A DNA stretch of 49,666 bases from a virus (IMGVR_UViG_3300009515_000002:1-49666); one strand, 5' to 3'. Positions 1 to 49,666 are shown, counted from the stretch's first letter. Program-made: numbers and translations. The notes: generated by a model from the sequence alone, not told the origin.

Positions 1-79
1 TGTAGCGTTTCGCTCCACGCGTAAGTCGTTGCCCTGTAGGGGTTTGCGTTTGGTGTAGCGTTTCGCTCCAACGCAAGTC
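1..79. repeat. Left copy of an exact 79-bp terminal direct repeat. It contains two copies of a ~27-bp unit (1-27 and 53-79).
   Basis: Bases 1-79 are identical to 49588-49666 by direct comparison. TGTAGCGTTTCGCTCCA occurs at 1-17 and 53-69. Confidence 0.95.
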
Positions 80-95
80 TGGCACGCAACTTGCT
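80..95 (+). promoter_or_regulatory. Sigma-54 (RpoN)-type -24/-12 promoter-like element P1, pointing rightward
   Basis: TGGCACGCAACTTGCT equals TGGCAC-N5-TTGC and matches the RpoN core consensus TGGCACG-N4-TTGCW. It starts at the first base after the terminal repeat. Confidence 0.4.
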
Positions 96-97
96 AA

Positions 98-114
98 GAT
101 CAAGAACCGTGCCA
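98..114 (-). promoter_or_regulatory. Sigma-54-like element P4 (one mismatch in the -12 box), pointing leftward
   Basis: The reverse complement reads TGGCACGGTTCTTGATC (TTGA instead of TTGC). With P1 it forms an imperfect inverted repeat, TGGCACG...CGTGCCA. Confidence 0.25.
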
Positions 115-151
115 CGTTATTATAAAGCACTTTGAAACGCAAAGTACTCCG

Positions 152-168
152 CCGCAAGAAGCGTGCCA
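152..168 (-). promoter_or_regulatory. Sigma-54 (RpoN)-type -24/-12 promoter-like element P2, pointing leftward
   Basis: The reverse complement reads TGGCACGCTTCTTGCGG, which equals TGGCAC-N5-TTGC. Confidence 0.35.
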
Positions 169-237
169 TCGGCCGGGGGGTCATTGAGGGGTGGGGTTTT
201 AGGGAAAACATAGCACCTAAATCTCCCGACAAATTTT

Positions 238-262
238 TCGTTTCAGGTGGAGTCGTTTCAGG
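238..262. repeat. Direct repeat TCGTTTCAGG x2 (238-247 and 253-262) in the non-coding leader
   Basis: Two identical 10-mers 15 bp apart, seen directly. Confidence 0.6.
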
Positions 263-291
263 AAGCTGGTTCTTACGGTGATTCACAGGCT

Positions 292-318
292 CCTTGCCCC
301 GCGCCAGCGCGCGCAAGG
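292..318. other. GC-rich hairpin in the leader (CCTTGC ... GCAAGG)
   Basis: 6-bp stem 292-297/313-318 enclosing a self-complementary GCGC-rich loop. Function unknown. Confidence 0.4.
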
Positions 319-427
319 GATAAAGGTGATAGCCTGGAGTAGGGGGGTTGCGTGGGAGGACACTGCTATATATGTTGGTTACGTGGGCGGCGAAGTCGGA
401 TGATAGCTCACTTGCGTGGCTCTGAAT

Positions 428-502
428 GCAGGCCAGGTTGAAGCATCGGCGGGAGCAAGAGTGGCACGGATCTCCCACTTCCTGCTTGGCTCCCTGGCCT
501 GC
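428..502. other. Long inverted repeat/hairpin in the leader upstream of the late operon
   Basis: GCAGGCCAGG (428-437) is the exact reverse complement of CCTGGCCTGC (493-502). An inner GGGAGC/GCTCCC pairing is also present. Confidence 0.5.
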
Positions 503-601
503 ACGCCACAAGACTCTGAAAGATCGCTAGAAAAATGAAGCCTGGATGTGGAGCGGGGAGAAGTCTCCGTCCGCAACAGGCTTTTCTCGTAGGAGGACGT
601 A

Positions 602-868
602 GTGGATCTGCAGATGCTGCACAGCCAGGTACTCGTCCGACCTTACGTGGTGACTAGGTACAACACTGGGGTGTTGGTTACGTCAGAGGATCGTACAGAC
701 AAGATGCACCCCCAGCAAGGCAATGTGATTAGCATCGGAAAGGACGTGACGATGTTGGGTGTTGGAGATACAGTGATTTACGGTCGGAGCGTCGGACGGC
801 GAGTGTACTTGAATGACGAGCCCTTGCTAGTGATGCAAGAGAGTGACATAATCGGAGAGATCGAATAA
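602..868 (+). CDS. GroES/Cpn10-like co-chaperonin (phage gp31-like)
   Basis: 88 aa, GTG start 6 nt after AGGAGG. Aligns along its whole length with the GroES pattern: LHSQVLVRP..GVLV...QGNVISIGKD...VGDTVIY......LLVMQESDIIGEIE. Confidence 0.65.
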   Translation: MDLQMLHSQVLVRPYVVTRYNTGVLVTSEDRTDKMHPQQGNVISIGKDVTMLGVGDTVIYGRSVGRRVYLNDEPLLVMQESDIIGEIE

Positions 869-2982: not shown

Positions 2983-3345
2983 ATGGCAAGTCTAAGAGGA
3001 GGGGATGTAGCTACAATCCCGTTGAAGATCCTCAATGGCGCGTCGTTGACAGAGGAGGTGGATCTCGGCGCAGCCGCCTCCGCGTCAGTAATCATGCCAA
3101 CAGCCTGGACAGCGGCAAACATTACAATCGTCGTCTATCGGCCAGGAGTTCAGGACTATGTTTCGGTCTACAAGGACGATGGGACTGAGTACGTACTCAC
3201 TGCAGCGGTAGATAGGGCAATCACACTTGACGCAGCCATCTTCGCGATTGCAGGAAGTAGAAAGATCAAATTGCGTAGCGGCACAGAGGCTACGCCAGTG
3301 AACCAGGGTGCTGACCGTACACTCTTTCTAACAATCAAGAGGTAA
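2983..3345 (+). CDS. Hypothetical virion protein, paralog A of a ~120-aa family (paralog B at 6619-6984)
   Basis: SD GAGGGG. Shares MPTxWxAAxIT, KDDGxEYxLT and LKLRSGT..VNQ..DRTL.LT blocks with the 6619-6984 product. Confidence 0.6.
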   Translation: MASLRGGDVATIPLKILNGASLTEEVDLGAAASASVIMPTAWTAANITIVVYRPGVQDYVSVYKDDGTEYVLTAAVDRAITLDAAIFAIAGSRKIKLRSGTEATPVNQGADRTLFLTIKR

Positions 3346-3347
3346 TC

Positions 3348-3815
3348 ATGGCTGCTGATAAGTGGAGGTGCTACAACAAGTGGAAGGAGTACATGAGCGA
3401 TGGTGCCGTCGATATTGACGCTGACACGTTCAAGTGTGCCCTTTACTTGAGCACGTCAAACGCTGCAACGCTCAGTGTTGGAACTGGAATCAAGGCAGAT
3501 CTGACAAATGAGCACGCAAACGCCAACGGGTACACGACAGGTGGACTGACGCTGACGACCACCTGGGTTGAGTCTTCAGGGACTGTCACGTTTGACGACA
3601 CCTCCAACCCTGTCTGGACCGCAAGCGGCGGCTCTATCATTGCACGATTTGCCGTGATCTACGACGACTCCACAACTACGCCTGTTGATGTTCTCGTCGC
3701 GTACTGTCTGATGGACAACACCCCAGCAGACGTAACAGTAACCGACACAAATACGCTTACCATCAACATGCATGCCTCTGGCGTGTTCACGGTGAGTGGT
3801 GGAGATACTGCATAA
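3348..3815 (+). CDS. Hypothetical structural (fibre-associated) protein
   Basis: 155 aa, Thr/Ser-rich beta-type composition, SD AGAGG, 3-nt gap after the previous gene. Confidence 0.5.
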   Translation: MAADKWRCYNKWKEYMSDGAVDIDADTFKCALYLSTSNAATLSVGTGIKADLTNEHANANGYTTGGLTLTTTWVESSGTVTFDDTSNPVWTASGGSIIARFAVIYDDSTTTPVDVLVAYCLMDNTPADVTVTDTNTLTINMHASGVFTVSGGDTA

Positions 3816-4087
3816 TGACGAACGATCCGGATGGGTTCTCCTTGACAATTCACGCCGTCGCATGGATGCTATGGCTCATGGCCTTTATTGGTTATGAGTT
3901 CTATGCCTTGGGGAATCCTGATCCGAAGTTCATCCCCCTTACACACTTCGTTCGAGAGCTTGCCTCGACGCACTTGATCATCCGTGCGGGAATCACATTC
4001 CTAACCATCTGGTTGTTCTTCCATTTCGGTGGACGTGATGTGTTCATGGAAGTTCTGCGCTTGCCGTTCGCGCGATGGTTGTCGTAG
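3815..4087 (+). CDS. Small integral membrane protein (holin-like candidate)
   Basis: 90 aa with 2-3 hydrophobic helices (AVAWMLWLMAFIGYEFYAL; IIRAGITFLTIWLFFHFGG). Confidence 0.45.
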   Translation: MTNDPDGFSLTIHAVAWMLWLMAFIGYEFYALGNPDPKFIPLTHFVRELASTHLIIRAGITFLTIWLFFHFGGRDVFMEVLRLPFARWLS

Positions 4088-4144
4088 CACGCAGGGCTGC
4101 GGCGGCCGGGATCTTTTCCTCGCCCGCGATGCCGCGCGTAGCGG

Positions 4145-4157
4145 GCCGCGAAGCGGC
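4145..4157 (+). other. GC-rich mini-hairpin GCCGC-GAA-GCGGC inside an ~86-bp GC-rich intergenic spacer
   Basis: Contains the GCGAAGC core known as a very stable DNA/RNA mini-hairpin. No U-tract follows it. Confidence 0.35.
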
Positions 4158-4173
4158 TGGAGTGGAGTAGGAC

Positions 4174-5265
4174 GTGGCTCAGTTCATCCGACCTGTCTCT
4201 GATGTTTCAACAGGTTCTTGGACATCTACACCGTTATGGTCGAAGCTTGATGACAACTCTGATGCGGATCTTGTTACTTCTGATGATAACACTAATCCAG
4301 ACACGGCAGAATTAGAAGGTACAAACTCAGGCATTAACGATCCTACGTCAAACGTCAATCATGTTCTTCGAGCTAGGATCAGAAAAGAGGCATCTGGCGG
4401 GCATAATGTTACATTCAATGGACGCTTGTACCAGGGAACAGGAGGTGGCCGTTCATTAATTGCTACAGTGACTGAAGCTGATGGCTCTGCTACTATGCAT
4501 ACCATCAGTGCTACACTTTCAGGCACTGAAGCGGATAACATCTCAGACTACAACGATCTGTATTTTGAGATTGAGCGGGCTGGTGATACTGGTGGTCCTC
4601 CTGGTAATCGACGCTTTTTTGAGTGTGCATGGATCGAACTTGAGGTTCCTGACGCTACAGTAAACACTCAAATCGATCCTGGTGTAGCAGCAATCAGTCT
4701 TGCAAGTTTCGCGCCAGCAGTTGTCACGCCTGTTGCAGTTGCTCCAGGGCTTGCAGCAATCAGTCTTACAAGCTTTGCACCGACAGCAGTTGTTCCACTC
4801 TTCCGAGAACAGGCCAGCTTTCGTGGCCGCAATGATGACGGAACTGACGAGACTGACGCAACGTGGATAGCAGCACTTAACACTGACTGGAATCAAGCAG
4901 CTGATGCTACGTTTCGTGTGCGTTTTCTGGTGAAGAACCTGGGAAACCAGGCTGGAGCTGATCAGACTTTCCAGCTCACAGCCAGCCACAACGCTGGAGC
5001 ATACTTCGATGTCACAGGTTCTTCGACGATCATCAAAGCAGTTGCGTCAACGAAAGTTGTTGAGGGAGCTAACACTACACAACAACTCGGTGCTGGAACG
5101 TTTGTCACGCCTAATGCAGGTATCGACGAGGTCGATGGTCAGGCTGGAGGTACTGCCCTCGATTTTGCAGGATACGATGAAGTAGAGCTAGAGTTCGTTC
5201 TGCAAATCATTGGCGTTGACGTGTCTGACTCTGACACAATCGACTTGAGGCTGAATGTCCTCTAA
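4174..5265 (+). CDS. Tail fibre-like protein with two PGxAAISLxSFAP repeat units
   Basis: 363 aa, GTG start after GGAGTGGAG. The N-domain is followed by repeats at aa 169-207 and a C-terminal beta-rich domain. Confidence 0.55.
   Translation: MAQFIRPVSDVSTGSWTSTPLWSKLDDNSDADLVTSDDNTNPDTAELEGTNSGINDPTSNVNHVLRARIRKEASGGHNVTFNGRLYQGTGGGRSLIATVTEADGSATMHTISATLSGTEADNISDYNDLYFEIERAGDTGGPPGNRRFFECAWIELEVPDATVNTQIDPGVAAISLASFAPAVVTPVAVAPGLAAISLTSFAPTAVVPLFREQASFRGRNDDGTDETDATWIAALNTDWNQAADATFRVRFLVKNLGNQAGADQTFQLTASHNAGAYFDVTGSSTIIKAVASTKVVEGANTTQQLGAGTFVTPNAGIDEVDGQAGGTALDFAGYDEVELEFVLQIIGVDVSDSDTIDLRLNVL
4678..4794 (+). repeat. Two coding tandem repeat units (PGVAAISLASFAPAVVTPVAVA / PGLAAISLTSFAPTAVVP)
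   Basis: Near-identical DNA (gcagcaatcagtcttgcaagtttcgcgcc vs gcagcaatcagtcttacaagctttgcacc). Confidence 0.85.
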
Positions 5266-6343
5266 TTGGTGGTTTTGGGCTGCTGTTGCAGCGGGAGCAT
5301 CTGGAGCTAATCTAGAGGCTTATACACAGACTCCGACGATCACAATATCGGCGGGGATTACAGTCAGTCCAGGACAAGCTAGTGTAACACTCACTGGCTT
5401 TGCGCCAACGATCGACGTCACGCAGAACCAAGTCGTTGATCCTGGTGTTGCGGACATTCAACTCACCAGCTTTGCACCAACAGTAGACGTCAGTGACCAC
5501 ATAGAAGTTCTACCTGGTGTGGCTGGAATCACACTAAACAACTTCAGTCCTGACGTTGTACTCAGTGACAACAAGCAAGTATTCCCAGGACTTGCAGCAA
5601 TCTCACTAACTGGGTTTGCTCCAACGATTGCGGTCTCTGATCATAAGACTGTCGATCCTGGACTCGCTGCGATAGATCTAGCTGGGTTTGCTCCGACAGT
5701 TGTAACACCTGTAGTTGTTAATCCTGGGCTTGCTGTAATTGATTTAACTGGATTCGCTCCAGACGTTTCGGTCGGCTCCAGTGTAATCATCACACCACCA
5801 ACAAATGGTATTAATGTAACGTCGTTTGCACCAACAATTGACGTTACGGATAACGTTGGTGTGGCGCCTGGATACGCAGCGATTTCTCTTGCAGGCTTCG
5901 CTCCGACTGTTCAAGTATCTGATAACATAGTAGTTCTGCCTGATGTTGCGGCAATCTCACTTGCAGGATTTGCACCATCAGTCGTCGTTGGTCAGAACAT
6001 CTTTGTTGATCCAAGTTTTGCTGCAATCACGCTCAGCAGCTTTAGCCCAGTCGTTGCACTTTCTGATAACAAACTAGTTGAGCCTGGTTTTGCTGCAATT
6101 GCTCTGAACAACTTTGCGCCAACGATCGACACTACGGATTACCAAATCGTCTTGCCCGACCTCAGCTCGATTGTGCTTATTGGCTTCGCACCTACGATTG
6201 ACATTACAGGCCACGTAGTTGTCAATCCTGAGAATGCAGCGATAGTGCTTACTGCTGAGCGTCCGACGATTATAGTTTCCAGCGATCCAGTGGACGGCAC
6301 TGGACGCAAGTGGTGGATCACACACATTCTGAGGTCTGAATAA
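5255..6343 (+). CDS. Repeat-only fibre/fibril protein (13 units of ~22-24 aa)
   Basis: 362 aa. ATG preceded by GAGG, overlapping the previous gene by 11 nt. Has a hydrophobic N-terminus (WWFWAAVAAGA), then 13 x PGxAxIxLxxFAPTxxVxDxxxV. Confidence 0.6.
   Translation: MSSNWWFWAAVAAGASGANLEAYTQTPTITISAGITVSPGQASVTLTGFAPTIDVTQNQVVDPGVADIQLTSFAPTVDVSDHIEVLPGVAGITLNNFSPDVVLSDNKQVFPGLAAISLTGFAPTIAVSDHKTVDPGLAAIDLAGFAPTVVTPVVVNPGLAVIDLTGFAPDVSVGSSVIITPPTNGINVTSFAPTIDVTDNVGVAPGYAAISLAGFAPTVQVSDNIVVLPDVAAISLAGFAPSVVVGQNIFVDPSFAAITLSSFSPVVALSDNKLVEPGFAAIALNNFAPTIDTTDYQIVLPDLSSIVLIGFAPTIDITGHVVVNPENAAIVLTAERPTIIVSSDPVDGTGRKWWITHILRSE
5369..6280 (+). repeat. Coding tandem repeat array, 13 units of ~66-72 bp
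   Basis: The consensus P-G-x-A-A-I-x-L-x-x-F-A-P-T recurs 13 times, counted in the translation. Confidence 0.9.
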
Positions 6344-6609
6344 TGCCACGATTCAAAGGACATCGTTCTGTAGAAAGTTCCGCAAGTACGACGGAGGCAA
6401 GTGCGTCTTTTCATGTACAGCGTGTTGTGTACATCGTAAACGACGGCGGGGAGGATATTCTCTTCAACTTTGACAGTCCTACCAGTGGTGCGAACGCTTT
6501 CACACTGAAGCCTGGTGGTATTCTTGAGGAAGAAGATATCGCTGTTAAGGTCCTGTGGTGGAAGACAGTGACAGGCACGTCTGATTTTCGTGCCTTTGGG
6601 CTTACGTAG
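6343..6609 (+). CDS. Hypothetical small protein
   Basis: 88 aa, SD GAGG, TAATG-type coupling to the previous gene. Confidence 0.45.
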   Translation: MPRFKGHRSVESSASTTEASASFHVQRVVYIVNDGGEDILFNFDSPTSGANAFTLKPGGILEEEDIAVKVLWWKTVTGTSDFRAFGLT

Positions 6610-6618
6610 GAGACTGTA

Positions 6619-6984
6619 ATGGGAATTGAATCACAACAACCGACAGGACGCAGGACTACTACGATCTCGAGTGGAACGTCGCTTTCAAGTGCCCCGATCT
6701 TCATTAGCAAGTATCGAATCATGCAAATCCACATGCCAACAACATGGGATGCGGCAGTGATTACTTTTGCGGCAGCACCGTCGGAAACAGGTACCTACAA
6801 TCCTGTGACGAAGGATGACGGTAGTGAGTACCAGCTCACGGTTGCCGCAAACAAGGTTGTAGTCTGTGACGCGACTGCTATGGCGATCGCTTCTACACAG
6901 TGGCTGAAACTACGCTCCGGCACTAGTGGTGCTGCTGTGAACCAGACTTCTGATCGCACACTAGAACTCACTCTACTGGACTGA
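6619..6984 (+). CDS. Hypothetical virion protein, paralog B of the 2983-3345 family
   Basis: 121 aa, SD AGGAG. Conserved blocks are shared with paralog A (see 2983-3345). Confidence 0.6.
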   Translation: MGIESQQPTGRRTTTISSGTSLSSAPIFISKYRIMQIHMPTTWDAAVITFAAAPSETGTYNPVTKDDGSEYQLTVAANKVVVCDATAMAIASTQWLKLRSGTSGAAVNQTSDRTLELTLLD

Positions 6985-6986
6985 CC

Positions 6987-7532
6987 ATGGCAATTGTTGA
7001 AAGTGATATCGTCTATCGTCTCTCAGTAGACACTGGTCCTGGAGACGCAAACGCGCAAGCTGATCCTAATCTATCCTTTGAAGACTTCTGTTCAACGACT
7101 GTTCTCAGTCTTGGCACACCGCTGAACAATCTTTGGGACGACGTTACCAGCGGCGAGGCTAGTGCTGGTGACACAGAGTACCGGAACCTGTTCGTTTACA
7201 ACAATCACGCAACAGATTCATGGGACAACATCGTCGTCTGGCTAGATTCGGAGGTCTCTGGTGGTGCTACTATTGAGATTGGTATCGACACGACAGCAGC
7301 AAGTGCTGTTACTTCTGCTAGTGCTCAGGCCTTGACGATTGCTAACGAGAGCACCGCTCCTGCCGGTGTAACGTTTTCGTCACCTGTGACAAAAGGTACA
7401 GGGCTGTCGCTAGGAAGTTTGGCTGCACAGCAGGTTCGAGCAATCTGGATCAAACGTTTGGTAGCAGTCTCGACGGCGGCGAAAAGTAACGATGGTGTCA
7501 CGCTTCGTTGTGAAGGAGATACGACAGCATAA
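6987..7532 (+). CDS. Hypothetical structural (fibre-associated) protein
   Basis: 181 aa, 3-nt gap after paralog B, the same position as 3348-3815 in the first cassette. Confidence 0.5.
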   Translation: MAIVESDIVYRLSVDTGPGDANAQADPNLSFEDFCSTTVLSLGTPLNNLWDDVTSGEASAGDTEYRNLFVYNNHATDSWDNIVVWLDSEVSGGATIEIGIDTTAASAVTSASAQALTIANESTAPAGVTFSSPVTKGTGLSLGSLAAQQVRAIWIKRLVAVSTAAKSNDGVTLRCEGDTTA

Positions 7533-9520
7533 TGGCGCTGCAGCGAACCATTAACCCGACTCTTAACGGTCCTGCTGTTAACTTGGGGGATGCGTCTGTC
7601 AAAGAGCGTCATATTCTCATTCAAGCAGGCTCATACACAACGCCATTTTTCCTGAAGGTGTATCCTTCGCAACAGTTCACGCAAGTCTTTTCGCTTCCAT
7701 TCAGGGTTCAAGTTGCAGCGTCTAGCATTCAGATCCTGGGTACTGTTCCAAACGTTGGACGGGACATGACGTTGGAATGGAATGTTCTCAGTGCGAATCT
7801 TGTAGGACAAGCACAACGGCCAAATCTGTCATCCATCTCTCGTTTCTTGGATGCTGAGTACACGTCGATCAAAGCGTCAAACGAGGTCGTGATTGATCCT
7901 GGTGGTGGTGGTGATTTTCTAACGTGGGAAGCATGGAAAACTGCCGCACCAGCATCCTGGAATCGGCCAGTTTGTGTAACGTTCAAGAAGGGTGTTTTCC
8001 ACACGCTACCGTCTGGTCCTGCGGAGGGACGTATTTACCCAGGTGACGTACCTGGCACAGGCAAGGTCATCATTACTACTGACGGCACGTTACCGACACA
8101 GTCTGCTTTTTCATCAGACCTGAGTGTCAAACCTTCTACATCAAGCAGAATCTACCCTTCTCAAATTGGTGAATGTGCGTGGTTTGAAACGCCAAACTCA
8201 ACAAATCACACCATCTTCGGTCTTCGTGATAATGACCGTGACATCTGGTTCCGAGGGATATATAGTTTTCAAAATCAGGCCGTAGCAAACAGTCGTGGAT
8301 TCTGGAACTCAGCTACACCATCAAGCTCCGCTGGATTTATGACAGATGTCCAGTGGGATCGGTGTATGTTCAATGGTGGTAACATCAACCGGAATCTTGA
8401 GCTACGAAAGTCTGGCGCTTTCAACGGTCGGCGTATTGGGATGTTCGACTGCTACATTCACAACCTCAATGCCGGTCCGCAGTCTACGGCAGTTTCTAAT
8501 GCTACGTTCGGTCAAGCAGTACAAGAATGGGTAGTCTGGAACTCGCACCTTGAAGCAATGGGTGCTAGCTGCTACGTAGACTCTGGAATAACATTGCCAG
8601 CGTCTGACATGCTTGCTCGAGACGGAGCGATCGCGTACTGCCATATGTACAGACCGCTCAGTTGGCATACGTCACCACCATCCGACTATCGTCCGAAGAC
8701 TTTCTACGAGCCTACTTGTGGTGATCGTTTGATGCTTTACCGAACGTTGATGGAGAACGGTCTCCAGTCCATCGACGGTCAGCCTGGCATCAACATGAAA
8801 AACAAGTACGGGATTGGTGATCCTACGCCAGGTTCGCCGCATGCACTTGGAGAAGGTTTCCACAGTTACGATCTTATTGTCCAAGAGTGTTGGATGCGTA
8901 ATCACCGAGAGCCAACTAGCCTGGCAGGACGAGGATATTGCGCACGATGGTCAATCAAAGATCTCGTCTGCGAAAAACTTGGACGGAACGCTACAGGTGC
9001 AGGTACTGCTAACTACTTCATCACTGTTGTCCGTGGTCCTAACGATGTCACCGGCATTACTAGCCCGGAGAATCTGTATCGAGAAGGCATCATCTATGCA
9101 GACGCCGACTTGAATTGGGCACATCATTACTCTGGCGTCTCTTCGCCCATGGTGGCTTCTGTTTTCAAGAACTCGATTGTACCACAGTCAACGTGGGGAC
9201 CGTACTCTACGTCACTCGGTGGTGATGGTGCAGTTGGAGACAAGATTGACAGCGCTCATGACGGTCGTGGTAACATCTTCATCAGTGAAAATCCAAACTT
9301 CTTTGACGACGTTCCTGGCATGTTCAGCAGCTGCACATTTCCTGCTAACGAAGTTGGATTGTATGCTGACGCGTCAACAGGGGATTACCGTATCAGTCCT
9401 GCGCACGCTTCTGCAGGCACTGGTGTTGATGGATATGCCGATCCGGGTGGAGCTGCAAATGTAATTGCAGCGATTGGCCTGCGCGGTGCAAATGTACGTA
9501 GCCTAGAGGTGACTCCATGA
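7532..9520 (+). CDS. Putative tailspike/depolymerase (possible right-handed beta-helix)
   Basis: 662 aa in the fibre cassette. The segment VVIDPGGGGDFLTWEAWKTA resembles the start of pectin-lyase-fold enzymes. The fold is not verifiable by eye. Confidence 0.35.
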   Translation: MALQRTINPTLNGPAVNLGDASVKERHILIQAGSYTTPFFLKVYPSQQFTQVFSLPFRVQVAASSIQILGTVPNVGRDMTLEWNVLSANLVGQAQRPNLSSISRFLDAEYTSIKASNEVVIDPGGGGDFLTWEAWKTAAPASWNRPVCVTFKKGVFHTLPSGPAEGRIYPGDVPGTGKVIITTDGTLPTQSAFSSDLSVKPSTSSRIYPSQIGECAWFETPNSTNHTIFGLRDNDRDIWFRGIYSFQNQAVANSRGFWNSATPSSSAGFMTDVQWDRCMFNGGNINRNLELRKSGAFNGRRIGMFDCYIHNLNAGPQSTAVSNATFGQAVQEWVVWNSHLEAMGASCYVDSGITLPASDMLARDGAIAYCHMYRPLSWHTSPPSDYRPKTFYEPTCGDRLMLYRTLMENGLQSIDGQPGINMKNKYGIGDPTPGSPHALGEGFHSYDLIVQECWMRNHREPTSLAGRGYCARWSIKDLVCEKLGRNATGAGTANYFITVVRGPNDVTGITSPENLYREGIIYADADLNWAHHYSGVSSPMVASVFKNSIVPQSTWGPYSTSLGGDGAVGDKIDSAHDGRGNIFISENPNFFDDVPGMFSSCTFPANEVGLYADASTGDYRISPAHASAGTGVDGYADPGGAANVIAAIGLRGANVRSLEVTP

Positions 9521-10326
9521 GTAAACTTGCTGGTGGCAATTACTTTGAGCTGGCTGGAGGGATTGGGGGAATTGGACTTACCCCTAATGCTACAGCTGAT
9601 ACAAAAGGAAGTTACAGTGAACTGGCGTCGTCAACAGCGCAGGATTGGGGTGGATTTCATATTACAATATCCCGACGACCAAACTCTGGAAACTTCGAGT
9701 ACTTGTTTGACGTTGCTGTGGGTGCAGCCGCGTCAGAAGTTAACATTGTCTCTAATCTTCGCTTTTCGGGACTTGGTTCGTCGTCAGCAGATACAGGCTG
9801 GAGTATGTGGTGTCCAATCCCAATTCCAGCTGGTACTAGAATCTCTGCTCGGTGCCAGTGTGGATCTGCCTCAGGCTCGAACATTCATATAAACGTCACA
9901 GGCTATGGCCCACATCCAGACATTCCACAAGCAGGCTCAGCCACTGTCTATGGGTCTAACGCAAGTACGACGATGGGTGATTGTGTACTGGCTGCCAGTG
10001 GTGGAAGCAAAGGCTCTTGGTCACAGATTGTAGCGTCTACAACCAATGACATGGGCATTCTTTACGTACACTTTGGCGGAGCTGACGATTCTGCATTCGC
10101 TACACAGTGGGGAGCCTTTGATATTGGCATAGGTGCTAATCCAAATGAAGTAGTACTGATTCCAGATATCACGTGCCAACATAACGTCGGTGAGCAAGCT
10201 ACTACATTGCACGGACCGTACTTTGTAAATGTTCCTTCTGGTGTACGGCTTAGTGCTAGAACGTGGAGCCAGTCAGGTTCAATGGATTCAGTAGACGTCA
10301 CTGTCATCGGATTCAGTCGGGGATAA
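9517..10326 (+). CDS. Tail fibre/receptor-binding candidate with an internal domain duplication
   Basis: 269 aa. Its two halves share KGS(Y/W)S...FD(V/I)..GA...EV......P.G.R(I/L)SAR......S..(I/V).(I/V)TV.G(Y/F). Confidence 0.45.
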   Translation: MSKLAGGNYFELAGGIGGIGLTPNATADTKGSYSELASSTAQDWGGFHITISRRPNSGNFEYLFDVAVGAAASEVNIVSNLRFSGLGSSSADTGWSMWCPIPIPAGTRISARCQCGSASGSNIHINVTGYGPHPDIPQAGSATVYGSNASTTMGDCVLAASGGSKGSWSQIVASTTNDMGILYVHFGGADDSAFATQWGAFDIGIGANPNEVVLIPDITCQHNVGEQATTLHGPYFVNVPSGVRLSARTWSQSGSMDSVDVTVIGFSRG

Positions 10327-31228: not shown

Positions 31229-31406
31229 TGAGCTTCTCTTGTAGCTCCGTGATAGACTCAACTAGCTTCAGGTTCTGCCATAGCAGATATTGGATGAGTA
31301 TGTATACGTCGTGACTCATTCCACCTTGGATACCTGCTAATGCGCCCGAGACCCTATAGTCTTCTGTGTATGTGTATGGAGTTGCATGCTCCTCGAAGTC
31401 ATCCAT
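31215..31406 (-). CDS. Hypothetical protein
   Basis: 63 aa, ATG overlapping the polymerase stop (TATGGATGA). Confidence 0.4.
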   Translation of the reverse strand: MDDFEEHATPYTYTEDYRVSGALAGIQGGMSHDVYILIQYLLWQNLKLVESITELQEKLNVQT

Positions 31407-33891
31407 ACTTCTCTAGCTCCCCGTAGTTAGGTCCGTAAGCGGCGTCGACAGGAATGATCACGTTGTGAGTTTCGAGAGGAACCGGTACGGTCATTAGTTC
31501 CATAGCCTTGGGGATAACCTCCGAACGAAGCTCGGTCGGGTACTGGAGTAGTAACGCATCGTGATTCTCGAGAACAATACGAGAGCTATTATGTCCACTA
31601 GCGCGCAGTTCACTAAAGATACCATCCTCGACTCTCCTCATTCCAATGCGAATCATGTCTGCGACGGCACTCTGTGCGAAGTGTGAGTATCCTTCCCGGA
31701 ACGTCTCCTTGTTCATCCGTCCGAAGAAGATTCGCTCTCGACCAAAGGCGTTGACCAGCTTACCGTTCTTTCGTATCTCGGAGGTGATCCACTCCCAGTA
31801 ACTTTCCAGCTCAGGGTAAGCTGCCATGTGAGCGGCTCGCATGACTTTGGCAAGTTTCCTAGTGATTCTTGGAACTCCGGGTTTGCCAGCGTCTCTTGCA
31901 AGTATCTTGTAGAACTTCTCTGGACCCATTTCATAATTGAATGCATGGTTGCATCTCTTCGCAAGGTAGCGATGGGGATACTCCTCAACGTCGTCCCAGT
32001 CAATGTCTAGGACCTTCGTCGCAGTGAGTCTATGCACGTCTTGGCCAGCTTCAAAGCACTCAATCATCGCCTTGATGCCAGCTTGGTAGGCTACGATCCT
32101 GGCTTCTGCTTGGGAATAATCCAGATAAGCGAATTCATATCCACGTTCTGCGACGTACATAGAGCGAAGTTCATGAGGCACGGTCTGCATGTTGATTCCG
32201 TAACCTTCAATTGTCTTAGAACATGCGCTACGTCCTGTCTCGGTACGTACAGGATTGTATGAGAAATAGGTGTACCCCTTTCCATCACACTTTACCTTGA
32301 GGTAAGAGGAGATCCGCTTGAGCTTTTGACGGATGGAGATGATAAGGAGTAGGCTCTCGTCACCAGTTTCGTTGTAAAGCTCACGCAATGAATCCTCGTC
32401 GGCACTGAGAGCTTTTGTCTTTCTGTTTCGTTTCTCCTTGAACTTTCGTATTCCATAGAGATACTCCAACAGATCCTTTCGTCCATTGACGTTGATTGCT
32501 GGCTCACCTTTCTGCACCCTCTTGGCTAGTCTTGCTGTGAACTCACGGATCTCAGGTTCTCTCTGTGGTGTGGTCTTGACAATATCGATCAGGCTCTCCA
32601 TCACGAAGATGTCGAGAGCCTCGTACTCAGCGTCGGCCTCGCCTTGAGTCTCTTCTTTCTGCCGCTCCATCTCAGCGACGTCGACCTTGATTCCATTCAC
32701 GATCATGTTCACGTAGATCGGAATGTCGGAGGTCATCAGACGATCATACAAAGTCCGATGACGAGGATTAGTAAGCTCGTCACTTTGCATAGCTTGAAAG
32801 GCTTCAAGTGTGGTACAAACATCCTTACCATTATACCGCAAGAATTGGAGGATGTCTGCTTCGTCCTTACCACCAGTCTTCCAGACTTTACCCTCGTCTT
32901 TGTAGTACGGCTCGCGAGTGTAGACTGATGCAATTACATCTAATCCTTTCCGAAGTTCTGGATATGCCACGTGTTGAGCAACCATTGTATCTTCGCGGTA
33001 GTTCTCAACTCGTATCCCATTATTCTTGAGAAGAAATGACTGATCGAAAATGCCATTCTGCGCGAGCTTCGGTGTGGGATTAGCAAGCAAGGCTTTGGCA
33101 ACAGCCATACGACCTGCGTCCCGTGTGGTAAGTATAAGAGCCCATGAGGGGTCCGTAGAAAAGCCCACGCAGTAGAGTTTTTGCTGGACGCACTCGATGT
33201 CATAGCTAAGAAGATCTCCTTTGTTGAGGGCGTCCAAGCATCTGGCAAGTGTAGTTGGATCTGGATCGATGTAGTATTCTCTCTCTGGGAGTCTGAGATC
33301 TGAAAACTTGGCATCAGTTGCAATCCTTTTAAAGTCCGTCGCAAGAAACACCAGCATTTGGTACTGCCGAAGCACCGCCGCAGGGTGAATCGTGGGGATA
33401 ACCTTCCGGCCCTCGATACGAGCCCAGGCCGCCGCAAGCTCGTCGTCCAACAGCCCGTGCGCGGCGAACAACTGCGCGCGCTCGAGATCCAACGTGACCG
33501 GCATGATCGAGCCACGACGTTTCGTGATGGCCTGGTGTCCTGTCAGTGCCCACAGAGCGTAGTTTCCGAGGGGGACAATGACGTTGCTGTCTGCCTCAGC
33601 CAGGTCCAGGATCAGCTCACGCCAACCGTGCATTACTTTCTCATTCGGAATCACCTTGCCCTTTTTGATTGGAGCCCAGGCTTTCATCTGATTACCTGGA
33701 GGCTGATACGGACAGAGATTCGTGATGAAGATGTTAGCAAGGTTGATCTTTGCGTCGGCGATTACATTACGCAGTAACTGACCAGAGACGCCCACAAAGG
33801 GGCGTCTCTGATGGACTTCATCACGTCCTGGCGCTTCGCCTACGATGGAGATCGGTGCTGGTTTGGGGCCAGAGGAGGGGACACGGGTCAT
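31399..33891 (-). CDS. Family-A DNA polymerase with 3'-5' exonuclease, fused to an N-terminal family-4 UDG-like domain
   Basis: 830 aa. UDG-4 motifs GEAPGRDE...PFVGVSGQLL and IHPAAVLR. Exo motifs YDIECV, NGIFDQSFL, YNGKDV. Pol motifs A DYSQAEARIVA, B RYLAKRCNHAFNYEMG, C ENHDALLL. Confidence 0.9.
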   Translation of the reverse strand: MTRVPSSGPKPAPISIVGEAPGRDEVHQRRPFVGVSGQLLRNVIADAKINLANIFITNLCPYQPPGNQMKAWAPIKKGKVIPNEKVMHGWRELILDLAEADSNVIVPLGNYALWALTGHQAITKRRGSIMPVTLDLERAQLFAAHGLLDDELAAAWARIEGRKVIPTIHPAAVLRQYQMLVFLATDFKRIATDAKFSDLRLPEREYYIDPDPTTLARCLDALNKGDLLSYDIECVQQKLYCVGFSTDPSWALILTTRDAGRMAVAKALLANPTPKLAQNGIFDQSFLLKNNGIRVENYREDTMVAQHVAYPELRKGLDVIASVYTREPYYKDEGKVWKTGGKDEADILQFLRYNGKDVCTTLEAFQAMQSDELTNPRHRTLYDRLMTSDIPIYVNMIVNGIKVDVAEMERQKEETQGEADAEYEALDIFVMESLIDIVKTTPQREPEIREFTARLAKRVQKGEPAINVNGRKDLLEYLYGIRKFKEKRNRKTKALSADEDSLRELYNETGDESLLLIISIRQKLKRISSYLKVKCDGKGYTYFSYNPVRTETGRSACSKTIEGYGINMQTVPHELRSMYVAERGYEFAYLDYSQAEARIVAYQAGIKAMIECFEAGQDVHRLTATKVLDIDWDDVEEYPHRYLAKRCNHAFNYEMGPEKFYKILARDAGKPGVPRITRKLAKVMRAAHMAAYPELESYWEWITSEIRKNGKLVNAFGRERIFFGRMNKETFREGYSHFAQSAVADMIRIGMRRVEDGIFSELRASGHNSSRIVLENHDALLLQYPTELRSEVIPKAMELMTVPVPLETHNVIIPVDAAYGPNYGELEKYG

Positions 33892-44224: not shown

Positions 44225-44288
44225 GCAGGGGACAGGAATCGAACCTGTCCGCTCAGAGCCGCCACCCCAAGCCTATCCTTTCCCTGCT
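44225..44288 (-). other. tRNA-like fragment: T-arm plus acceptor stem, without a canonical D or anticodon arm
   Basis: Minus strand: AGCAGGG...GGACAGG-TTCGATT-CCTGTCC-CCTGCT. It has a perfect T-loop and a 6-7-bp acceptor pairing, but only ~32 nt lie between them where ~42 are needed. Confidence 0.4.
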
Positions 44289-48222: not shown

Positions 48223-48251
48223 AAAAAAAAAATAAAAAAAAATAATTATAT
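48223..48251. other. 29-bp pure A/T tract (A10-T-A9-TAATTATAT), a DNA-unwinding-element candidate
   Basis: Read directly. It is the only such tract I noticed in the window. Confidence 0.5.
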
Positions 48252-48847: not shown

Positions 48848-48922
48848 TTTGATTCTCCCTTTTGCGGTTTGTTCTCACGTTTCACCCGTTTGAAAACGGG
48901 TCAAGGGCTAGCTTGGTTTGGT

Positions 48923-49381
48923 TTAGGTGATTGTAACGCCGATGCTTGCAAGGTAATCTTGCAAAGCCTGCCCTTCAAGCTGGGCCAGCTTTTCGGCGCT
49001 AGCTTCTGGCGCTTTTCGCGTCACTCTTTGCCCGGGCGCCAAACCGCCGGACAATGCGATCTCCTGAAGTTGTTCCAGGGAAAGTGAAGGATTCTCCCGC
49101 AACATTCCCCGCAAACGCTCCCTTGCGTTTGTCCTGTTGAATCTGAAAACGGCGGCGGAAACGCCTTTGAGCGTTTTCGCTTCTTCGGAACCGTCGCTCA
49201 AAATCGTTGCGACTTTGGTTCCGTAGTGCGCCAACCACTCTTTGTTCCCGTCAGCGTTGATTGGCAATTCACACAGAATCTGCCCTTCAACAGTGGCCCG
49301 CGCTTTGCCGTCTTCGGTAGCCGTAAACGGTTTGCCCGAAGTCAAATCCACCCACGCGAATCCCTTCCTTGCCTCTCTCAT
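48923..49381 (-). CDS. First early protein; C-terminal HeH/SAP-like motif
   Basis: 152 aa, SD GGGAGA. C-terminus LEGQALQDYLASIGVTIT, paralogous to the C-terminus of the 44409-44798 product. Confidence 0.55.
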   Translation of the reverse strand: MREARKGFAWVDLTSGKPFTATEDGKARATVEGQILCELPINADGNKEWLAHYGTKVATILSDGSEEAKTLKGVSAAVFRFNRTNARERLRGMLRENPSLSLEQLQEIALSGGLAPGQRVTRKAPEASAEKLAQLEGQALQDYLASIGVTIT

Positions 49382-49466
49382 TTTGCGTCTCCCTGAGACG
49401 CTAGCCCCTGACCCGAATTTTCAAACAGCGTGTCGGGGTTTTCGTTCCCCCGAACGCTAGTCTATA

Positions 49467-49483
49467 TTGCAAACCCCGTGCCA
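49467..49483 (-). promoter_or_regulatory. Sigma-54 (RpoN)-type -24/-12 promoter-like element P3, aimed at the early operon
   Basis: The reverse complement reads TGGCACGGGGTTTGCAA, an exact TGGCACG-N4-TTGCA. It lies ~85 nt upstream of the ATG at 49381. Confidence 0.45.
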
Positions 49484-49572
49484 CGGTTTGGGCTAAACGC
49501 AAAGCTCGTAACCCGTTGTCGCCAAACGACTTACAAGATCGCGCCGCAATGGCAGACCATGCTAGGGTGCCT

Positions 49573-49599
49573 CGAAACGCTACACCCTGTAGCGTTTCG
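49573..49599. promoter_or_regulatory. Perfect 12-3-12 palindrome CGAAACGCTACA-CCC-TGTAGCGTTTCG
   Basis: The arms are exact reverse complements. The right arm is the first 12 nt of the terminal repeat. Function unknown (enhancer-like site, packaging site or ori element). Confidence 0.85.
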
Positions 49600-49666
49600 C
49601 TCCACGCGTAAGTCGTTGCCCTGTAGGGGTTTGCGTTTGGTGTAGCGTTTCGCTCCAACGCAAGTC
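49588..49666. repeat. Right copy of the exact 79-bp terminal direct repeat
   Basis: Identical to 1-79. Confidence 0.95.

Follow-up and report, generated by a model that had tools for sequence, protein, structure and literature searches.

At the left end of phage T7, early genes are headed by the tandem host-polymerase promoters A1-A3, which are of the sigma-70 type and activator-free, and the phage later uses its own polymerase. The late promoters of phage T4 carry a single -10-like element and undergo enhancer-like activation by gp55, gp33, and the sliding clamp. For sigma-54, a factor of universal specificity, the closed complex formed by the holoenzyme needs an ATP-driven enhancer-binding protein (bEBP) to open, and sites for IHF lie between the enhancer and the promoter, e.g., at Pu and nifH. 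Since sigma-54 promoters are silent until this activator acts, one would not expect a virulent-looking phage to use them for its first genes. Described bacterial examples include the divergent pairs hycA/hypA and zraP/zraS(hydH) of Salmonella (PMC3844500). According to the same source, activator-free sigma-54 holoenzyme forms stable closed complexes, and some bacteria possess activators that lack a DNA-binding domain and are able to act at any sigma-54 promoter (PMC3844500). In the full texts searched, a scope outside which most subscription journals fall, sigma-54 appeared in connection with phages only through promoter-prediction software, rpoN phenotypes linked to receptors, and a predicted sigma-54-like phage protein (PMC7693777); main phage promoters of the sigma-54 type were not described.

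We analyzed a 49,666-nt viral sequence (IMGVR_UViG_3300009515_000002), hereafter the window, at its full length. Bases 1-79 are an exact copy of 49588-49666, which identifies the window as a complete phage genome with 49,587 unique bases; the 79-bp duplication may be either a product of circular assembly or a short terminal repeat. Genes on the plus strand (602 to 28477) encode a GroES-like protein, both terminase subunits (small and large), and SU10-type portal, adaptor, and capsid proteins. Those on the minus strand (49381 down to 28691) encode a family A DNA polymerase/UDG fusion, a primase/helicase, a ParB-methylase, a recombination module, and many small ORFs. These two arms face away from a shared non-coding stretch of ~800 bp (49382..49587 joined to 1..601), the genome's sole divergent intergenic region, and meet at a tRNA-Phe gene. 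The single tRNA-Phe was uninformative for host identification, and a host search among genome contigs returned two distant matches only, one of them an Actinomycetota metagenome-assembled genome whose locus carried no site of the kind described below. Searches of Pfam, PHROGs, and PDB matched nothing in the family to which the first leftward ORF belongs, for which 12 homologs in all were found. Within the polymerase gene (31399-33891, minus strand), the fused domain is N-terminal and belongs to the uracil-DNA glycosylase superfamily. Between large terminase and portal (2983-10326), ten consecutive ORFs of up to 662 aa had no Pfam match, and the three largest had no PHROG match either.

The features of the control region are collected in Table 1.

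Table 1. Sequence features of the divergent control region and the genes that flank it; promoter names denote predicted elements
Feature	Position	Strand	Remarks
P_L1, putative sigma-54-type -24/-12 promoter, TGGCACGGGGTTTGCAA	49467..49483	-	Exact consensus; 19.0 bits; orthologous sites in L155, L156, L157, L154
P_R, putative sigma-54-type promoter, TGGCACGCAACTTGCTA	80..96	+	Faces GroES/terminase/structural arm; exact match 80-94; 19.8 bits
P_L2, putative near-consensus sigma-54-type site, TGGCACGGTTCTTGA	100..114	-	One mismatch: A replaces -12 C; 15.6 bits
P_L3, putative leftward sigma-54-type site, TGGCACGCTTCTTGC	154..168	-	Exact match; 54 nt from P_L2
Conserved 27-bp inverted repeat, GTAACCCGTT-N7-AACGACTTAC	49508..49534		-51 to -77 relative to P_L1
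Extra half-site of the conserved inverted repeat, GTAAGTCGTT	21..30	+	= 49608-49617
Perfect 12-3-12 palindrome, CGAAACGCTACA-ccc-TGTAGCGTTTCG	49573-49599		Right arm within terminal duplication
Second direct copy of TGTAGCGTTTCGCTCCA	54..70	+	= 49641-49657; ends 10 nt before P_R
Weak sigma-70-like element, TTGCGT-N13-TATATA	347..371	+	13-nt spacer; did not pass consensus scan
Terminator-like hairpin with U-run	537..590	+	Just before GroES ribosome-binding site
First rightward gene, GroES-like co-chaperonin	602..868	+	Followed by small and large terminase subunits
First leftward ORF, 152 aa	48923..49381	-	Weakly conserved family; first leftward gene in eight related phages

Exact matches to TGGCAC-N5-TTGC occurred at 80-94(+), 154-168(-), and 49469-49483(-), and together with the one-mismatch copy they span 287 bp. 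At the three exact sites the GG and GC doublets lie exactly 10 nt apart. The first-pass annotation had reported three exact matches, all near the terminus, with ~0.1 expected on both strands of the window, among them an exact RpoN consensus in front of the first leftward ORF, and both statements held: shuffled sequence contained 0.13 exact matches on average, with three or more in none of 100 shuffles, and 86 nt separate the end of the P_L1 motif from the ATG at 49381. That annotation had interpreted the leftward match as a promoter, a reading that is strongly supported, but the sites do not amount to one promoter: the cluster is predicted to fire in both directions and includes face-to-face pairs. 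P_L2 and P_R confront one another with their -12 elements 5 nt apart, a geometry also found in L155, the closest of the metagenomic relatives described below, at 1158(+)/1194(-). P_R starts right behind the 79-bp duplication, and the palindrome straddles the right-hand copy of that duplication.

To score the sites, we used a weight matrix made from 29 intergenic Salmonella sites bound by sigma-54 holoenzyme in vivo (PMC3844500). P_R and P_L1 scored at the median of these true sites (19.3 bits; range, 16.2-23.6), P_L2 fell just under their range, and P_L3 scored <10 bits on the 18-mer matrix because of the G/C that follows TTGC. First-order Markov resampling yielded 0.18 sites of at least 16 bits per genome. 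The four best-scoring sites of the genome all lie in the control region, in divergent intergenic non-coding DNA. Within ORF 4174-5265, two back-to-back sigma-54-like motifs with one mismatch each, TGGCGCGAAACTTGC (minus) and TGTCACGCCTGTTGC (plus), were also seen at 4702-4736, with scores inside the shuffle range.

Deposited phages included no close DNA or protein relative, TerL identity being at most 30%. The nearest cultured phages are Zobellviridae (CRP-5, CW02, PSA11, and Pecta), and these four contained no site of 15 bits or more; hence no cultured model was found. Metagenomic relatives shared 41-58% TerL identity with the window. A set of 157 TerL-related loci was reduced to 132 non-redundant ones, 976 kb in all, which contained 57 sites of at least 15 bits versus 7.6 expected. 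Fifty of the 57 were located upstream of TerL, at 0.144 per kb, compared with 0.011 per kb, the null level, in TerL and downstream of it, and many loci had clusters of two to four sites. When the spacer of TGGCAY-Nn-TTGCW was varied from 0 to 12 nt in the relatives, 14 occurrences were counted at n = 5 versus 0-3 at the twelve other spacings, and a second locus set gave 12 at n = 5 versus 0-5 elsewhere. Positions that had not been selected for also matched the sigma-54 consensus: TGGCAY was followed by G, and TTGC by A or T, each in 21 of 30 sites.

Four relatives share the layout of the window, L155 (58% TerL identity), L156 (55%), L157 (50%), and L154 (43%), each with a leftward first gene of the same weakly conserved family and a rightward GroES/terminase arm. 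In each of them the leftward site before the first gene was top-scoring (20.4, 18.2, 20.7, and 16.8 bits, respectively). An alignment of the control regions showed TGGCAY and TGCA to be invariant among the P_L1 orthologs while the four spacer bases differed in every phage, so the leftward motif of the first-pass annotation is kept at 43-58% TerL identity with its contact bases fixed and its spacer free. The conserved P_L1 precedes the homologous first gene by ~65-265 nt and shares its orientation. The tandem leftward sites of L155 and L156 align with P_L3; in all, L156 has four sites, and L155 has a near-consensus fifth besides four of at least 18.0 bits. Rightward counterparts of P_R were found in L155 (1028, 1158), L150 (8933), L154 (8914), L002 (921), and L087 (6, 50), and in L152 and L157 internal sites occupy gaps before genes and are oriented with them. 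Across eight genomes with called or clearly delimited genes, the window included, all 21 tallied sites were non-coding. Two of the 21 touch called ORFs that look mis-called, one a spurious-looking 41-aa ORF and the other an ORF with a misplaced start codon, for which protein alignment puts the true start further downstream.

The motif also occurs outside this lineage. A scan of viral contigs for AACGACTTA-N3-6-TGGCAC, which combines part of the conserved inverted repeat with the promoter motif, returned 120 loci. By a rough estimate this bare pattern appears at about chance frequency and was rejected as a signal; only the subset that bears a -12 element is meaningful. In that subset, 16 of the 120 loci have nTGC at the sigma-54 spacing versus 1.9 expected, the other 104 being at about null density. 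Fifteen of the 16 are new contigs with no protein in common with the window (GC 0.33-0.67; up to 151 kb long), and they carry up to seven sigma-54-type sites each, often in 27-nt-spaced trains with the inverted repeat upstream of the first. Four to seven sites each were counted in L209 (511-2129), L228 (8863-10515), L184, L176, L260, and L181, in trains with 27-nt spacing and in modules that recur about every 800 nt. At the level of DNA sequence, the sigma-54 pattern is confirmed to extend to a phage lineage and beyond, and the sharing of one bipartite motif by unrelated phages favors a host factor of universal specificity over a phage-specific protein. No conserved protein was found to be encoded beside the repeat/promoter composite in the unrelated contigs.

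Median-level matrix scores, a sole enriched spacing, the non-coding position of the sites, the conservation of the leftward one, and the failure to find a leftward sigma-70 consensus in the control region strongly support the sigma-54 promoter reading of the first-pass annotation, and we consider it probable that the four sites are genuine -24/-12 promoters bound by host RNA polymerase with sigma-54 (RpoN). We infer holoenzyme binding here and take the left arm to be the early one. P_L1 would express the leftward arm beginning with its first gene, replication genes and small ORFs included, from a start predicted near 49457 that leaves a 76-nt leader up to the ATG; P_L2 and P_L3 would add upstream leftward starts, near 88 and 142, and P_R, with a predicted start near 106, would fire rightward toward the chaperonin, terminase, and structural genes. 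Several observations count against sigma-54 promoters: some sites are packed 27-54 nt apart or lie face to face 5-7 nt apart, which is unusual for promoters and means that two holoenzymes could not occupy such pairs together; P_L2 is without the -12 C; no activator was identified; the control regions of L001 and L152 have no site, though L152 has two inside its early arm; and relatives also have sigma-70-like candidates ahead of the rightward arm.

Compared with the described systems, the sites have the TGGCACG-N4-TTGCW motif of bacterial sigma-54 promoters and score in the range of sites bound in vivo. Like the divergent sigma-54 pairs of Salmonella, they are non-coding and include divergent pairs 100-190 bp apart, with repeats in between and an inverted repeat at the usual enhancer distance (80-150 bp). 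Unlike bacterial sigma-54 promoters, they lie at the main control region of a virulent-looking phage, with four to seven sites per cluster arranged as trains or as facing pairs, and with neither a linked activator gene nor a recognizable known activator-site consensus. As at T7 A1-A3, host-polymerase promoters (here predicted) are packed into a few hundred bp by the terminal repeat and head the early genes; unlike T7, the phage has no detected polymerase of its own. As at T4 late promoters, the predicted promoters could not be opened without an accessory activating device. However, T4 encodes its own sigma-like factor and parts of its activator, and its -10-like element differs from the -24/-12 elements here.

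How the closed complexes would be opened was approached through the coding capacity of the phages. Pfam searches of all 79 ORFs revealed no Sigma54_activat, sigma-54, sigma-70, or RNA polymerase domain, and no GAFTGA-like motif was present in any of the six frames of the window, which bears out for every ORF the first-pass finding of no phage RNA polymerase and no bEBP signature. Activator domains were likewise missing among the called genes of the relatives, and no bEBP was encoded by ORFs of at least 130 aa in six of the unrelated contigs. As there is no recognizable phage bEBP, opening must come from a host activator or an unrecognized phage factor; the former, which the first-pass annotation had proposed and which might tie infection to a host signaling state, could be bound nearby or be a promiscuous activator of the type that lacks a DNA-binding domain. 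It is possible, at low probability, that the phages carry a non-AAA+ device of their own that opens sigma-54 closed complexes, either an unannotated early protein or a factor that docks at the conserved inverted repeat just upstream of the -24 element. If host-type sigma-54 promoters do drive these genomes, infection would depend on host sigma-54 and an activator (a host sensor or a phage factor) and would be gated by host physiology, and a second class of host promoter would be added to phage biology. If the phages do carry their own opener, whole lineages could run on sigma-54 promoters that the host alone cannot fire, escaping sigma-70 control, and the composite element in unrelated contigs with up to seven sites would make this a widespread undescribed mode of transcription. 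The comparative data supply defined fragments, a conserved 27-bp repeat, and a simple signature with which such phages can be found in viromes.

The best candidate for the site of a protein partner of the promoter is not the palindrome. The first-pass annotation had proposed the perfect 12-3-12 palindrome, 90-116 nt upstream of the TGGCAC of P_L1, as an enhancer. Its existence and distance were verified (it lies 68-94 nt upstream of the TGGCAC of P_R), but the enhancer role was not supported by the comparison: in the alignment L155 and L156 lack it, the stretch that contains it is present only in the window, and the repeat at 49508-49534 is conserved instead. Two direct copies of TGTAGCGTTTCGCTCCA are present, the first of them forming the right arm of the palindrome, and L157, the only relative with anything similar, carries related CGTTTCGCTCCAA direct repeats that precede its site by ~90-130 nt. 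The inverted repeat at 49508-49534 is the best-conserved block of the window/L155/L156 alignment and recurs near TGGCAC in 10 related loci in all, most sites being without it. The repeat precedes TGGCAC by 3-6 nt in L011, L012, L016, L017, L021, L049, L065, and on one side of L155; the gap is 25-27 nt in L156, in the window itself, and on the opposite side of L155. The two gap classes are ~21 nt apart, i.e., two helical turns, so a bound protein would be expected to face the promoter alike in both. We regard this repeat as the best candidate for the site of a protein, regulatory or architectural, that may cooperate with the promoter at either of the two distances.

IHF is one known architectural protein with which the repeat can be compared. 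The repeat lies at -31 to -57 or -51 to -77, a usual position for IHF sites, but of the IHF consensus only the CAA-N4-TTA core is present, in its right half. It differs from IHF sites in its 10-7-10 symmetry and in the conservation of bases within the N4, and the control region of the window has no full WATCAANNNNTTR IHF consensus. No conserved canonical upstream activating sequence was identified. In three distant relatives, L049 (2010-2180), L050 (2170-2290), and L021 (1580-1710), four GTGAGYACTCAC palindromes were noted 130-250 bp upstream of a leftward sigma-54-type train; these are a better-placed enhancer candidate than any in the window.

A role for the TGGCACG...TTGC units as binding sites of a phage protein, such as a small terminase acting on a packaging signal, a replication initiator, or a repressor, appears unlikely. 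It would suit their closeness to the terminal duplication, upstream of the terminase genes, and the LuxR/GerE-type helix-turn-helix of the small terminase subunit. The two units at 80-114 are near-palindromic, as are those of L155 at 1158-1194, and the copies have both orientations, as they do at lambda cosB. Against it, the units have the universal sigma-54 consensus, at unselected positions too and solely at the sigma-54 spacing. The motif is unchanged at 25-35% TerL identity and in unrelated contigs, where one would expect the specificity of a phage's own protein to have drifted. Units are as a rule single and asymmetric, and the gaps within pairs vary (5, 47, and 59 nt), which leaves no fixed dimer geometry.

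We consider it quite unlikely that the holoenzyme binds mainly without productive initiation, the sites then serving as a sink for polymerase or sigma-54, as a roadblock or insulator between the arms, or as a mutually exclusive switch. The stability of activator-free closed complexes, together with the lack of an encoded activator, would allow it, and trains of 27-30 nt and face-to-face pairs fit occupancy better than independent firing. It would also be compatible with the sigma-70-like promoters that appear to serve the rightward arm of relatives. L155 has TTGACA-17-TACTAT at 1351-1379, before the rightward arm, which passed the consensus scan; by eye, counterparts of the 347-371 element with an N17 spacer were seen in L150 and L156, and similar elements in L002, L152, L154, and L079. 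These candidates imply that sigma-54 is not the sole route, at least rightward. The leftward arm tells against non-productive binding, given that P_L1 keeps a promoter-like distance and orientation before the homologous first gene, that the internal sites of L152 and L157 precede genes in their own orientation, and that no other leftward promoter signal was found. A leftward sigma-70 consensus (TTGACA-16..18-TATAAT-like) was absent from the control regions of the window, L155, L156, and L157, and in the early arm 10 sigma-70-like sites were found versus 12.3 expected, hence no excess. A conserved TTGAAA/TTGACA block at 49417-49433 was considered as a leftward sigma-70 promoter and rejected because its -10 element and spacing are inconsistent between phages.

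Very unlikely, in our assessment, is that the motif and inverted repeat together form the promoter of a cryptic phage or virion RNA polymerase or sigma-like factor, by analogy with the hairpin promoters of phage N4. Many sites do have a hairpin-capable inverted repeat immediately upstream, no homolog was detected for several large proteins (1357, 877, and 662 aa), and two unrelated array contigs related to each other, L209 and L228, encode, besides PhoH, a protein with sigma-70 region 2. However, the 79 ORFs of the window include no polymerase or sigma domain, the three large proteins, which had no PHROG or PDB match, have no polymerase catalytic motif (DxDGD or T7-like), most sites lack the inverted repeat, and the motif is the host sigma-54 consensus. 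A chance cluster, for which nothing speaks beyond the small size of the motif, is practically discounted by the shuffles and by enrichment that is family-wide, at one spacing, and in one region of the genome.

Several elements of the leaders and of the early arm were recorded alongside the sigma-54-type sites. The rightward leader (207-250, 381-390, and 537-590; L155 1230-1540) has conserved CCCGACAAnTTTTT blocks and a family-wide CCACGTGGG box. Hairpins similar to the one at 537-590 are present in L155 (1514-1533) and L156 (2117-2133), and the order in relatives is sigma-70-like element, leader, hairpin, and GroES. The sequence of the leader blocks and hairpin suggests attenuation or antitermination control of the late arm. 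On the other side, a ~27-nt inverted repeat brackets the first leftward ORF, with one copy in the 5' leader (49400-49426) and the other just past the stop codon (48884-48912), and pairing of the two in the mRNA could give a long duplex that resembles RNase III-type processing sites. Within the leader copy lies the block TTnTCAAAnAGCG, which is conserved in L001, L152, and L154. Further into the leftward arm, a 311-nt gap holds a terminator-like hairpin (44230-44250, minus strand) whose stem-loop GGTTCGATTCC resembles a tRNA T-arm; ARAGORN called no tRNA there, and in an Rfam search of the window tRNA was the sole match. About 1.2 kb into the leftward arm, a non-coding gap of 380 nt contains a long A/T homopolymer run (48223-48242), and similar runs occur at the corresponding place in L001 (1249-1260) and L002 (1-18), one of which ends a contig there.
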